A stretch of 39,225 nt of DNA from Methanothrix sp. (lineage in GTDB: Archaea > Halobacteriota > Methanosarcinia > Methanotrichales > Methanotrichaceae). A model generated the notes under the pieces. The model worked only from the letters and a program-made list of their open reading frames with translations, had not been told where the DNA came from and made no database searches. The DNA is taken from NCBI GenBank assembly GCA_040770465.1, contig JAXGJB010000026.1:1-39225 (forward strand), given 5' to 3'. Positions 14,689 to 17,676 of the stretch are shown in pieces. Position 1 is the stretch's first letter, and each line of letters begins with the position of its first letter. Position numbers and translations under genes: made by a program.

Positions 14689-15225
14689 ATGGTCTTCGAG
14701 CAACTTGCCCAGTCCATCATGGAAATTATCGCTCCAGCTTTGCCTTATCTGATAATAGGTGGCAAGAAAGCAGCTGAAGAAGGGGCAAAGAAGATGGGAT
14801 CTGACGCATGGGAGAAGGCGAAAACCCTTTGGGAGAAGCTGACACCCAGGATGAAATCCAGAGCAAAAGAAACAGCTTGTGATGTTGCCGCATCCCCGGA
14901 CGATCCCGAATTGCGGGAGGCTCTGAGGGTGCAGGTAAAAGAGATCTTATCCGACGATCCCCATCTGGCAGAAGAGTTGGGCCTCCTGGTGACGGCTCAG
15001 CAGAAAGTCAGCGATCTCTGCGGCCAGGCTACGACGGTCAAAGTAGAAGATATGACGAAGGGGGCCATAGACGCCGAGCAGGATATAGATAACGTTGCAC
15101 GTGGCGGTGAGGCCATCACTGTTGAAGTTGAACGCCTTGGCGGAGGCGAGATTAAAGCCGATCAGAAGGCGGAGAAAGTTGAAGAGGGCGGGAAAGTGAT
15201 TGGTGTCAAGATCGGGAATATGTAA
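14689..15225 (+). CDS. Bell/HeLL-like helical protein with three C-terminal amyloid-like motif repeats (putative NLR effector)
   Basis: Hydrophobic N-terminal helix IIAPALPYL; G.DAWEKAK.LWEKL; PDD...ALR.Q.KEIL.DDP.LAEEL. The tail has three repeats of roughly A.Q....V..G.[AV].[TG]V.[VI]. It lies 24 bp upstream of the NACHT gene. Confidence 0.7.
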   Translation: MVFEQLAQSIMEIIAPALPYLIIGGKKAAEEGAKKMGSDAWEKAKTLWEKLTPRMKSRAKETACDVAASPDDPELREALRVQVKEILSDDPHLAEELGLLVTAQQKVSDLCGQATTVKVEDMTKGAIDAEQDIDNVARGGEAITVEVERLGGGEIKADQKAEKVEEGGKVIGVKIGNM

Positions 15226-15249
15226 ACCACTCTTCTTTGGGGTTGATAT

Positions 15250-17676
15250 ATGGCGCAACGAGATCGGGACGTGAAAGACTACATTAAGATGCGTACTCGC
15301 AACTTCACAGGCCGAGAGTGGGTCTTTGAGGAGGTCGAGAGATGGCTTGACGATCCGAATGCGTCCCGATTCTTCATCATCACCGGCGAGCCTGGCATAG
15401 GAAAGAGCGCCATAGCCGCAAGAATGGTTCAGTTCTCTGATGGCGAATTTAAGCCTCCTGCCGGATGTTCTCATCTCGGAAGCGGTTTTTTGAGCGCTGC
15501 TCACTTCTGTTATGCCCGCAACGGTGGATGGATATCGCCTGTTAGATTTGCCCGCTCTTTGAGCTCTCAGCTCGCCATGCTCTATCCCGAGTTTGCAAAG
15601 CTGTTAGCTTCTAGTCTTAATATTAGCGTTAATCTGAGTATTGATGTAAACTTGGGCACTGCAATAGGCGTCCAGATCCAAAACTATCATGCTGAAAGCC
15701 CGGAGGCGGTATTCGACGATCTTGTCAGGCAACCTCTGAAGGCTTTGAGCAAAAAAAAGAGACTTCCAGGACCGCTGGTTATCCTGGTGGACGGTCTAGA
15801 TGAGGCCCTGAGTTACAGCGGCCCTACCACCATAGTGAGGCTACTTGCGGCCTGCGATGATCTTCCGCCTCAGGTGAAACTGCTGCTGACATCGAGACGA
15901 AGGGAGGAAGTTTTGAGGCCCTTTCGGCCGCTTAAGCCTTTCATCCTTTACGCCCACAGCGAGAAGAACAAGAGGGATCTGCAGTCTTATTTGAGATGCA
16001 GATTCGAGGAATCTAAATTTCTGCGTGGGATGGAATGGGACGGTTCCCGTGCAGAGGAGGTTATCGAAAGCCTGGCCAGCCGCAGTCGGGGAAACTTCTT
16101 GGTGGTTTCCAATGTTGTAGACAGCATCGAGCGGGGCGAGCTTGAAATAAGTGATCCTGAAGCCCTGCCAGCGGACCTGAAGGATCTGTATGCTTGGTTT
16201 TTGGATCGGCGGGTCCAAGGAGATCGAAGTTTGTGGAGAGATCTTTATCGTCCGGTGCTGGGGGTGCTGGCTGTCGCCTTCGAGCCTGCCGACATTTCGA
16301 CCCTTTCTCGATGGACCGGTTTTGGGTCTCAGAAGGTTAGGGATGCTCTCCACGACATGGAGGAGTTTCTCGACCCGACCTTGGATGGAATGTATAGGTT
16401 TTACCACGAGTCGGTGGTCGATTTTCTAACCAGTGATCATGATGACTTTTACAACTTGGATACCTCTGAATATCATCGAATGATAATTGCAAGCTATATG
16501 CAAGCGTTCGGAAGACGGAGCGAGTGGAATGATTCTGATTTGTACGGACTTCGCTACCTTCCTTCGCATCTGGCAAAAGCAGGGTGTTGGGACGATCTGG
16601 CCTTTACTTTGACGGACTTCAATTTTCTTGAGGTTAAATGCAGGTCCTTATCGGTTTACGACCTGGAATCCGATTACAGGGAAGCTCTGCGTTGCTGGAA
16701 CGGAAATGAGACGGACAAACAGGTGCTGACAGCTTTCGAGAAACGTCTCCGCCTTGAATCTCATCACATCAATCGGTCTCCCGAGCTGCTCTTCCCTCAG
16801 CTTTATAACCATCTCACTTGGCTGGCGGGAGATTTTGCTGACTCTATACGTTCCATTTGCGAAGAGGCGGCATCGAAGCGAAGCGGCTGGTTGCGGATGA
16901 TCCAAGACCCTAAATTACGCTCACCCTGGTCGCATTCGCTTGAAGGTCACACGGGTTCGGTGAGATCTGTAGCTGTGACTCCTGATGGTGCTCGCATAGT
17001 CTCGGGTTCATACGACAGGACGGTCAAGGTTTGGGACGCCGAATCTGGCCGGACGATACGGTCTCTTGAAGGCCTCAGTGGTTTAGTGCTCGCAATAGCA
17101 GTGACTCCAGACGGCTCCCGCATAGTCTTAGGATCGGACGATGGAACTGTCAAGGTCTGGGATGCCGAATCTGGCAGGCTGATAAGGTCGCTTGGAAGCC
17201 ACAGGGGTTTGCTCGCTATAGCAGTGACTCCTGATGGATCCCGCATAGTCTCGGGATCGGCGTGGGGAACTGTCAAGGTCTGGGATGCCGAATCTGGCAG
17301 GCTGATAAGGTCCCTTGAAGGCAACATGTATTCGGTGAACGCTGTAGCAGTGACTCCTGATGGATCCCGCATAGTCTCGGGATCGGACGATGGAACTGTC
17401 AAGGTCTGGGATGCCGAATCTGGCAGGCTGATAAGGTCGCTTGGAAGCCACGCGAGTTGGGTGATGGCTGTAGCGGTGACCTCGGACGGCTCCCGCATAA
17501 TTTCGGGTTCATACGACAGAACGGTCAAGATCTGGGAAATCGAATCTGGTAGTTCATTAGTGCTTTTCGGGAACGATGACCCCATTTTCTGCCTGGTTCT
17601 CTCACAAGATGATAGAGGGCTTGCTTGTGGAGACTCTAAAGGGGGGACTTGGATATTCGAATGGATGCTGCGATAG
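15250..17676 (+). CDS. NACHT-WD40 STAND NTPase (NLR-like receptor) with no N-terminal effector domain
   Basis: FTGREWVF; Walker A GEPGIGKS; Walker B LVILVDGLDEA; LLLTSR; GNFL; YHES..DFL; helical domain YLPSHL..LTDFNFL; six WD40 repeats. Confidence 0.92.
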   Translation: MAQRDRDVKDYIKMRTRNFTGREWVFEEVERWLDDPNASRFFIITGEPGIGKSAIAARMVQFSDGEFKPPAGCSHLGSGFLSAAHFCYARNGGWISPVRFARSLSSQLAMLYPEFAKLLASSLNISVNLSIDVNLGTAIGVQIQNYHAESPEAVFDDLVRQPLKALSKKKRLPGPLVILVDGLDEALSYSGPTTIVRLLAACDDLPPQVKLLLTSRRREEVLRPFRPLKPFILYAHSEKNKRDLQSYLRCRFEESKFLRGMEWDGSRAEEVIESLASRSRGNFLVVSNVVDSIERGELEISDPEALPADLKDLYAWFLDRRVQGDRSLWRDLYRPVLGVLAVAFEPADISTLSRWTGFGSQKVRDALHDMEEFLDPTLDGMYRFYHESVVDFLTSDHDDFYNLDTSEYHRMIIASYMQAFGRRSEWNDSDLYGLRYLPSHLAKAGCWDDLAFTLTDFNFLEVKCRSLSVYDLESDYREALRCWNGNETDKQVLTAFEKRLRLESHHINRSPELLFPQLYNHLTWLAGDFADSIRSICEEAASKRSGWLRMIQDPKLRSPWSHSLEGHTGSVRSVAVTPDGARIVSGSYDRTVKVWDAESGRTIRSLEGLSGLVLAIAVTPDGSRIVLGSDDGTVKVWDAESGRLIRSLGSHRGLLAIAVTPDGSRIVSGSAWGTVKVWDAESGRLIRSLEGNMYSVNAVAVTPDGSRIVSGSDDGTVKVWDAESGRLIRSLGSHASWVMAVAVTSDGSRIISGSYDRTVKIWEIESGSSLVLFGNDDPIFCLVLSQDDRGLACGDSKGGTWIFEWMLR
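16939..17550 (+). repeat. Five highly similar 123-126-bp WD40-coding repeats
   Basis: Long identical tracts, e.g. ~17141-17202 = ~17390-17451. Variation is concentrated at two sites per unit. Confidence 0.92.

Follow-up and report, generated by a model that had tools for sequence, protein, structure and literature searches.

How might a receptor that has no effector domain of its own pass a signal to the small protein encoded next to it? The question is raised by two adjacent genes at positions 14,689 to 17,676 of a 39,225-nucleotide contig from Methanothrix sp. (assembly GCA_040770465.1, contig JAXGJB010000026.1), the whole of which is referred to here as the window. A first-pass annotation of this DNA had described the genes as a candidate amyloid-signalling immune module, in which a Bell-like effector and a nucleotide-binding oligomerisation domain (NOD)-like receptor (NLR) share a beta-motif. 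In our analysis the effector, the motif family and the recurrence of the arrangement stand, whereas the receptor's copy of the motif is found inside its NACHT domain and not at its N-terminus.

The receptor carries its motif inside the NACHT domain

Both open reading frames (ORFs) are exactly as the annotation had given them. The ORF list places the effector gene at 14,689–15,225 (+; 178 aa) and the receptor gene at 15,250–17,676 (+; 808 aa), on the same strand and with an intergenic gap of 24 nt. An upstream in-frame start was looked for in front of the receptor ORF and none was found; a longer ORF is impossible. The receptor combines a NACHT domain of the NPHP3_N type (Pfam, aa 23–216, E = 4.5e-18) with a WD40 propeller (Pfam, E = 1.2e-50; repeats at aa ~555–805, positions 16,912–17,664), and the Pfam matches and the position of Walker A (aa 46–53, positions 15,385–15,408) bear out the description of an NLR that starts almost at its NACHT and has no effector domain of its own. 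AlphaFold2 (AF2) modelled aa 1–420 from a 62-row alignment with a predicted local distance difference test score (pLDDT) of 92.5 and a predicted template modelling score (pTM) of 0.90, and Foldseek matched the model to the STAND NTPases (signal-transducing ATPases with numerous domains) MalT, NLRP7, NLRP2, NLRP3, Apaf-1 and Avs3 (E = 1e-7 to 1e-5). The WD40 region holds a tandem array at 16,970–17,549 with a period of 126 nt, 4.6 copies and 80% matches (Tandem Repeats Finder); high internal repeat identity is typical of NLR sensor domains.

The receptor motif occupies aa 125–146 (positions 15,622–15,687) of an insertion that spans aa 123–150 (positions 15,616–15,699). Since it falls between Walker A (aa 46) and the Walker B strand with its DGLDE sequence (aa 176–186, positions 15,775–15,807; AF2 strand at aa 176–181), it is an insertion within the NOD and not an N-terminal tail. 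The 164 positions of the NPHP3_N model are stretched across 194 residues of the receptor, and in the AF2 model the insertion is coil, with a pLDDT of 75–82 in the three blocks that cover it and mostly above 90 in the rest of the domain. Modelled as coil and variable in length and copy number, the insertion is predicted to lie outside the core fold. The stretch that precedes the NACHT (aa 2–15) was modelled as a helix and gave no motif match above the decoy threshold.

This insertion is a feature of a whole group of NACHT proteins. Among the best 120 of 197 homologues of receptor aa 1–300, both Walker motifs could be found by pattern in 110. The insertion, seen as a Walker A to Walker B spacing of at least 105, is present in 96 of the 99 homologues that begin directly with the NOD (Walker A no later than aa 80) and absent, with a spacing of 94 or less, from 9 of the 11 that have longer N-termini (Walker A beyond aa 80). 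In the sampled NACHTs the insertion thus tracks the absence of an N-terminal domain. Its consensus is roughly [IV]x[IV]xVxQx[IV]xxNxGxxIGVxIxNL. Most of 42 metagenome loci hold distant, insert-less NACHTs; the insertion is present in L041, L042, L043, L045 and L056 (Walker A at aa 49–64) as well as L044 (Walker A at aa 116), and metagenome NACHTs with Walker A at aa 130–455 have a spacing of 73–99 and no insertion. Few archaea have the insert-type NACHT: 4 of 105 genomes from the window's order carry it, and in a 401-genome sample of the phylum the other relatives were only 6 genes in 4 genomes, which have N-terminal domains, a spacing of 85–89 and no insertion. The nearest relatives of the receptor include, by their source names, Chloroflexi proteins. 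One close homologue (P0014, 612 aa, 52% identity) has the insertion and ends in a PNP_UDP_1 phosphorylase domain instead of the WD40 repeats.

The effector and its three C-terminal repeats

A word-index search gave only four close homologues of the effector (64–92% identity), so an exhaustive profile search was needed. A profile of the protein and these four homologues, searched against 1.84 billion representatives, matched 1269 proteins at E ≤ 1e-3, of which 453 reached E ≤ 1e-10. Among the 150 listed of the 1269, nearly all relatives are 130–160 aa long and are matched over aa ~5–105; the matches listed carry very diverse beta-rich C-terminal tails, and a few of them are N-terminal fusions to NLRs, such as P0130 (Bell-NACHT-FGE-sulfatase). 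No Pfam family is common to the relatives (0 of 50 share a Pfam match), and the effector itself matched no family in Pfam, NCBIfam or PADLOC.

What the effector is likely to be emerges from the company that its relatives keep. Bell-like relatives are encoded in 33 of the 105 genomes of the window's own order, and many of these genes adjoin NLR genes whose N-terminus repeats the tail motif. The profile matches include members of canonical Bell/NLR pairs at L004 (E = 3e-39), L006 (5.5e-28) and L008 (3e-22); in L004 and L006, and probably in L008, the tail motif matches the N-terminus of the neighbouring NLR, as in L006, where the tail GGIAVGGDVSDGTITAG matches the NLR N-terminus GGVAVGGDVSGSIVAS. 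At other loci of the order, NB-ARC N-termini carry 'FDQ.GQ.V..Q.NI', and the matching Bell tail in L014 is FDQRGQTVGAQTNIG. Because the N-domain is homologous to Bell proteins in canonical pairs of the same order, we accept it as Bell-type, as the annotation had proposed; the assignment is made from sequence homology to members of these pairs rather than from the published Bell hidden Markov model (HMM). Bell domains have been described with an acidic residue at position 2 or 3 (10.1101/2020.01.06.895854); the effector starts MVFEQ, with its acidic residue (E) at position 4, and the family consensus starts MD.

Two further points concern the Bell-like genes of the order. Several of the Bell-like matches bear a 'TAG inside' flag; in L014, the one flagged case examined, it proved to be merely the stop codon of the gene. 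In L021 and L023 (G039:C99 and G061:C223), a single ORF encodes a Bell-like N-domain, a BASS3-like 'FDQRGQKV' stretch (BASS, bacterial amyloid signalling sequence) and an NB-ARC-type P-loop.

The AF2 model of the effector (13-row alignment; mean pLDDT 84.5) agrees with the architecture that had been claimed for it, a helical domain of about 100 residues followed by three pseudo-repeats. Six helices (aa 3–23, 26–36, 38–54, 57–68, 73–89 and 91–100) make up the N-terminal domain (aa 1–100, positions 14,689–14,988), the first of them hydrophobic. Behind it, repeats R1 (aa 101–122, positions 14,989–15,054), R2 (aa 127–150, positions 15,067–15,138) and R3 (aa 155–178, positions 15,151–15,222) contain two strands each, at aa 103–110 and 113–122, 126–136 and 141–150, and 154–164 and 169–177, respectively, and fold at a pLDDT of 70–90 in a single chain. 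Going by the model, the three beta-arch repeats could stack as a short beta-solenoid. The three-rung solenoid suggested earlier is consistent with the six strands and with the weak structural neighbours of the tail, which are beta-solenoids (MinC C-domain, Z = 4.1, 3.6 and 3.5; CsgA, Z = 3.9; FapC, Z = 3.7), but Foldseek returned no match to the effector model at E ≤ 0.001. A sequence search of the PDB with a profile of the Bell subfamily gave chance-level rows only (E ≥ 0.18). In the wide VIA search the effector model scored at most Z = 5.6, which for helical models falls under the tool's own guidance on noise, and we assign no fold to the helical domain. Protein Atlas returned for the effector only unnamed cyanobacterial clusters at 0.92 and one 13% 'HetE-N' match.

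A motif family common to insertions and repeats

Does the resemblance of the effector repeats to the NACHT insertion exceed chance? We derived an HMM from 96 distinct insertions of other proteins, a set without the window's NLR. This NACHT-only HMM matches the effector at aa 101–120 (3.5 bits), 127–150 (4.9 bits) and 155–178 (18.6 bits), which are the three repeats, R3 being the nearest to the insertion consensus. Among 3080 shuffled Bell-family sequences the best score was 6.3 bits, and the best reversed sequence scored 2.3 bits; the claim of a motif common to both proteins therefore holds for R3 well above the shuffle maximum. Seven of 154 Bell-family proteins exceed 6.3 bits, one of them the CHAT protein P0151. 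By inspection of the tails by eye, these seven carry the window's tail type, and other types (for example, GERSVAIGG-like) score lower. In the register of the first-pass annotation, R1–R3 are identical to one another at 7–8 and similar at 12–16 of 22–24 positions; the receptor motif is identical to R2 and to R3 at 7 of 22 positions each and to R1 at 3 of 22. Taken together, these sequence comparisons argue that the NACHT insertion and the effector repeats belong to one real motif family.

An iterated motif HMM, with a threshold at the best reversed-decoy score (6.8 bits), marks all three repeats in the window (R1 with 7.7 bits, R2 with 26.7 bits) as well as the receptor insertion (15.1 bits), and both partners in L002. 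Elsewhere it marks the NACHT insertions in L032, L034, L041 and L044, a zinc-ribbon protein in L032, the N-terminus of a WD40 protein and the C-terminus of a CHAT-like protein in L034, the N-terminus of the NB-ARC NLR in L036, and the C-termini of CHAT-type proteins in L045 and L055. In loci that hold insert-less NACHTs it made no mark. By these matches the motif appears to be portable, standing in N-terminal, internal, post-zinc-ribbon and C-terminal positions.

The arrangement recurs in archaea and bacteria

The effector and insert-NACHT architecture is found at several loci. In L002, the 76% ortholog, the effector repeats and the insert-NACHT are present with the same 24-nt gap and co-orientation, and R3, IKADQKLEKIEEGGKAIGIKIKKM, is matched more fully by the insertion, IKVDQHIKENLGTVIGIQILNY, than is the case in the window. 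The same architecture is seen in L032 and L034, from two other genomes of the order, one NACHT carrying two motif copies in its insertion. Among the metagenome loci, L042 has a Bell gene and then an insert-NACHT; L045 a CHAT protein with a C-terminal motif and then an insert-NACHT; L043 a 196-aa protein encoded divergently to the insert-NACHT; and L056 a 195-aa transmembrane protein and then a NACHT whose insertion has two copies of the motif, 'ARDRxxVVG' being present in both. The partners in L042, L043 and L056 were judged by eye, below the HMM threshold, and L044 has no upstream context. Overall, the effectors beside insert-NACHTs carry one to three C-terminal copies of the motif, in bacteria and archaea alike. 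C-terminal motifs on CHAT proteins are seen in P0151 and L045, and on a CHAT-like protein in L034. In L036 the motif is N-terminal, on an NB-ARC NLR that adjoins a Bell protein.

Locus L034 (G075:C4:60000-70000) is a dense cluster of motif-bearing genes. It contains an insert-NACHT and a WD40 protein that bears the motif close to its N-terminus, together with a 245-aa protein with a C-terminal motif, which may be CHAT-like by its sequence, and a 1525-aa NACHT with a two-copy insertion. At 3647-4243 (-) of L032 and 83-1156 (-) of L035 are genes for proteins that have a zinc-ribbon-like CxxC...CxxC N-terminus followed directly by the motif; one continues as an unknown domain and the other as a helical TPR-like region, and each adjoins a Bell-like gene with two repeats. 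These proteins may be another type of sensor that uses the same motif.

A model for signalling by the pair

Based on these observations, we propose a model for the pair. We favour the view that the genes form a horizontally acquired NLR/effector module for regulated cell death, in which the motif inside the NACHT serves as a template or docking rung for the effector; our confidence in this view is evenly divided. By analogy with characterised pairs, the module would probably act in defence of the abortive-infection type. The receptor's single copy of the motif is an insertion of ~22–28 residues between Walker A and Walker B. The WD40 propeller would sense a ligand, upon which the NACHT would open in a nucleotide-dependent manner and oligomerise, and the insertions would be exposed or brought together. 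An exposed insertion could then take up a beta-arch fold and offer a template or docking rung to the effector repeats. Refolding or polymerisation of the effector tail would free the Bell domain to act, presumably through an attack of its hydrophobic N-terminal helix on the membrane, and the cell would die. The amyloid, templating and membrane steps of this scheme are drawn from the better-known systems compared below.

A wider proposal, which we advance with somewhat less than even confidence, is that a widespread, as yet undescribed class of bacterial and archaeal NACHT proteins carries an amyloid or beta-solenoid signalling motif within the NTPase, between Walker A and Walker B, and not on an N-terminal tail; the nucleotide state would then directly control whether the template for separate Bell, CHAT and other effectors is exposed. 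The pair in the window would be a transferred archaeal example of this class.

Several observations weigh against the model. In the published definitions consulted the receptor motif is placed at the N-terminus of the NLR (10.1101/2020.01.06.895854; PMC12261475), and a loop anchored at both ends in a globular NTPase would be geometrically less free to stack at 4.8 Å. The reading of the locus as an amyloid-type pair keeps its Bell effector, its motif family and its recurrence, and departs from precedent at the receptor. The two partners in the window are identical at only 7 of 22 positions, mainly in the second strand. The tail is ~30% E, K and D with a net charge of -5, and published BASS motifs are described as depleted in K (10.1101/2020.01.06.895854). 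A neighbour that passes the HMM threshold stands at only 5 of 10 insert-NACHT loci, and L041 is without a clear motif-bearing neighbour. The correlation of the insertion with a missing N-terminal domain is phylogenetically confounded, as the insert-less homologues are the most distant ones, and one distant NACHT clade (L060, L061, L062, L064, L068, L069 and L078) is a counter-example, with short N-termini (Walker A at aa 65–97), a spacing of 67–76 and no insertion.

Co-variation of the partners, which had been put forward as a mark of such pairs, gave a divided result. In a rank test, each tail was compared with its cognate insertion, 96 background insertions and the cognates of the other loci. 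The cognate ranked 84/104 in the window and 39/104, 28/103, 14/103, 71/104, 6/104, 63/104 and 51/104 elsewhere: there is no general preference for the cognate in this test, which also counts against the model. In an 8 × 8 matrix of tails and insertions from which row and column means had been removed, the diagonal mean was 7.42 versus 0.01 ± 2.42 in permuted matrices, and 0.5% of 20,000 permutations reached or exceeded 7.42. This signal is driven by L056, L043, L032 and L034; the window pair adds only +2.8 and L042 contributes -5.4, and the pairs and segments were picked by eye, two of the loci being orthologous. Pair-specific matching at this locus is therefore unproven. A complex prediction for NLR aa 1–300 and tail aa 96–178, run with no controls, gave a median of 0.28, below the 0.32 mark, and counts neither way.

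How, then, does the model stand beside other explanations of the same data? The Bell/NLR death module might stand as described while the insertion is a lineage-specific structural loop and the effector is activated otherwise, for instance when its helical domain or tail directly binds the oligomerised NACHT or WD40 domains, or through self-polymerisation of the repeats; the likeness of loop and repeats would then derive from the common composition of beta-hairpins or from old shared ancestry. The rank test, in which cognate insertions are no closer to adjacent tails, is what this explanation would lead one to expect, the window's insertion has hardly any match to the repeats in its first half, and the pLDDT of 75–82 across the insertion signifies moderate confidence and not disorder. 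Moreover, the insertion is near-universal in its clade (96/99) and is therefore present with or without a visible motif-bearing partner, as in L041. Yet a mere loop sits poorly with the specificity of the NACHT-only HMM, which by inspection selects only tails of this type, on 7 of 154 Bell-family proteins, and passes over other beta-rich, BASS-like tails, and with the pair-specific matches in L056, L043, L032 and L034. Insertions with one or two copies and the use of the same motif in the canonical N-terminal position in L036, as well as on zinc-ribbon, WD40 and CHAT proteins nearby, also tell against it. On this evidence we regard the structural loop as unlikely, although it deserves to be taken seriously.

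It is also conceivable, if rather improbable, that the motifs mediate a finite, stoichiometric docking of beta-solenoids with no self-propagating fibril. The three-rung mini-solenoid would be stable, and the insertion would add or remove one rung and in this way tether the effector to the resting receptor or recruit it to the active one. AF2 does fold the single-chain repeats into six strands at a pLDDT of 70–90 without a partner; this is weak evidence, because AF2 monomer models frequently show amyloid motifs as folded. With three rungs per chain, where HET-s has two, the tail could be stable by itself; it is strongly charged (net -5, 30% E, K and D), and an internal loop might give one partner a rung more easily than it would stack with neighbouring protomers. 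The one-copy tails of related Bell-family proteins, however, cannot make a solenoid alone, and those published BASS motifs that have been assayed form fibrils and prions (10.1101/2020.01.06.895854; 10.1101/2024.11.07.622273). Lastly, the two genes could be mere neighbours that have no functional tie to cell death or defence; the small protein might, for example, be structural or membrane-associated and unrelated to the NLR. No PADLOC model covers the small protein, and the NLR gets only a match in the WD40 region and a faint P-loop match. Set against this are the 24-nt gap and co-orientation kept in the 76% ortholog L002, the recurrence of Bell-like/NLR adjacency across the order and in bacterial metagenome contigs, and the position of the pair in a low-GC variable spot, and we consider chance adjacency very improbable. 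We thus retain the regulated-cell-death module with a template or docking rung in the NACHT as our working model.

Relation to known systems

Archaeal amyloid signalling as such is already published, and the in-domain receptor motif is the new part. Bell domains and matching pairs of Methanosarcinales have been reported in 10.1101/2020.01.06.895854, which names two archaeal pairs and a Bell sequence from Methanothrix soehngenii. Since Bell/NLR amyloid pairs of Methanothrix are thus already published, the window pair is a variant of a published kind; and since NLR/effector amyloid signalling is accepted from fungi to bacteria, with one system proven antiphage, another archaeal Bell/NLR pair would be incremental.

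The likeness to the Bell/BASS-NLR pairs is extensive. These too have a short helical Bell-type protein with a beta-prone C-terminal motif of ~25 aa, sometimes in two or three pseudo-repeats, beside a collinear NLR with NACHT and WD40 domains, and they too occur in Methanosarcinales-type archaea (10.1101/2020.01.06.895854). Unlike them, the window's receptor bears its motif within the NACHT (aa 125–146) and not as an N-terminal extension, and the motifs of its two partners are less similar than in canonical pairs such as L006. Signalling motifs have been located at NLR N-termini or effector C-termini (PMC12261475; 10.1101/2020.01.06.895854), and the motif search in the latter covered NLR N-termini only. 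In the literature searched, which took in running text but not figures or supplements, we met no account of a signalling motif that lies within a NACHT domain. The difference from published pairs rests on the position of the motif, and the motif itself may be one of BASS1-10.

Two experimentally studied systems are close to the pair. The Bell-related Bab, which has a BASS11 motif, is an antiphage abortive-infection (Abi) system of E. coli. Like the window pair, Bab/Agp couples a small, helical, Bell-related effector whose C-terminus bears an amyloid motif to a large motif-matched sensor next to it, and it is an experimental precedent for such pairs as abortive-infection defence; unlike the window pair, its sensor motif is N-terminal (aa 2–25) and Bab has a single motif copy (10.1101/2024.11.07.622273). 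The BASS3-like pair of M. soehngenii comes from the same archaeal family and likewise consists of a Bell-type effector and an NLR, whereas its receptor is an NB-ARC protein with a RHIM-like BASS3 motif at the N-terminus. For its NLR-side peptide (AEB69175.1, aa 5–29) aggregation is documented by Fourier-transform infrared spectroscopy (FTIR) and Congo red (PMC8086366); the window's motif is known from sequence and models.

There is also a fungal parallel. HET-S and NWD2 of Podospora anserina signal through a beta-solenoid of HRAM, an amyloid motif related to HET-s, with the NWD2 motif at the extreme N-terminus. That system shares with the window pair one motif copy on a NACHT-WD40 receptor without an effector domain, several pseudo-repeats, each rung having two strands, on a neighbouring helical effector, pore-forming in the case of HET-S, and WD40 repeats that are highly identical internally. 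It differs in having two repeats of 21 aa, compared with three of 22–24 aa in the window, and in belonging to another domain of life. The HET-s family of Pfam gave no match to the effector at E ≤ 1.

The part that merits follow-up is the in-domain motif across a large effector-less NACHT clade that is recurrently paired with motif-tailed effectors: the receptor motif sits in the ATPase domain and is near-universal in the sampled relatives without an effector domain. If the insertion is a signalling element, an entire class of pairs has escaped those motif surveys that looked at NLR N-termini only, and the conformational change of the NTPase would be linked directly to the templating of a beta-fold. 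Many 'effector-less' NACHT-WD40 and NACHT-TPR proteins, in cyanobacteria, Chloroflexi and others, would then gain a candidate output mechanism. On the archaeal side, the pair gives a filament-forming lineage of methanogens a candidate module for virus defence or cell death, which lies at a variable hotspot of low GC.

Genomic setting

The annotation had placed the pair in lower-GC DNA between housekeeping genes, and the GC profile supports this, with a GC content of 0.48–0.52 over 14,500–17,000 and 0.61–0.67 on both sides. The lower-GC island extends over 14,500–17,733 and ends at a variable junction beside a gene of the 6,7-dimethyl-8-ribityllumazine (DMRL) synthase family. The flanking genes are of housekeeping types: on one side a GHMP-kinase-like gene (11,667–12,743, -) and an SSF sodium:solute symporter (-), on the other the DMRL-synthase-family gene (17,736–18,407, -) and a ribonucleotide reductase gene (18,256–20,151, -).

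When positions 17,700–18,900 were used as a query, 14 of 16 genomes of the same genus were matched, the window's own counted. In the 11 loci compared, homology to the window stops at 17,733–17,744 wherever the locus reaches that far. Beyond this point the congeners have a GC content of 0.33–0.44 and unrelated, differing genes in 7 of 7 flanks examined (L084, L085, L087, L088, L089, L093 and L094). The GC profile and these unrelated low-GC flanks place the pair in a variable low-GC spot, a location that fits acquisition by transfer. A search of the plasmid collection gave 0 matches at 1e-15 and two distant ones (23–27% identity) at 1e-5. A scan with sigma-70 promoter and terminator models stayed at shuffle level, the sigma-70 model not being meaningful for an archaeon.

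Some smaller features of the region were also recorded. Two of the seven congener flanks start MRILLDTNIFIYREDD, which may be PIN-like. The ~350-nt stretch at ~17,736–18,083, which belongs to the 3' part of the DMRL-synthase-like gene, recurs at 95% identity elsewhere in the same genome (contig C31:33842-34189), and extra copies of it are also present in some congeners. The SSF symporter (12,905–14,336, -) is split into two overlapping ORFs in different frames, an N-terminal part at 13,392–14,336 and a C-terminal part at 12,905–14,017, both of which match PF00474; either a frameshifted pseudogene or a fault in the assembly could explain this.

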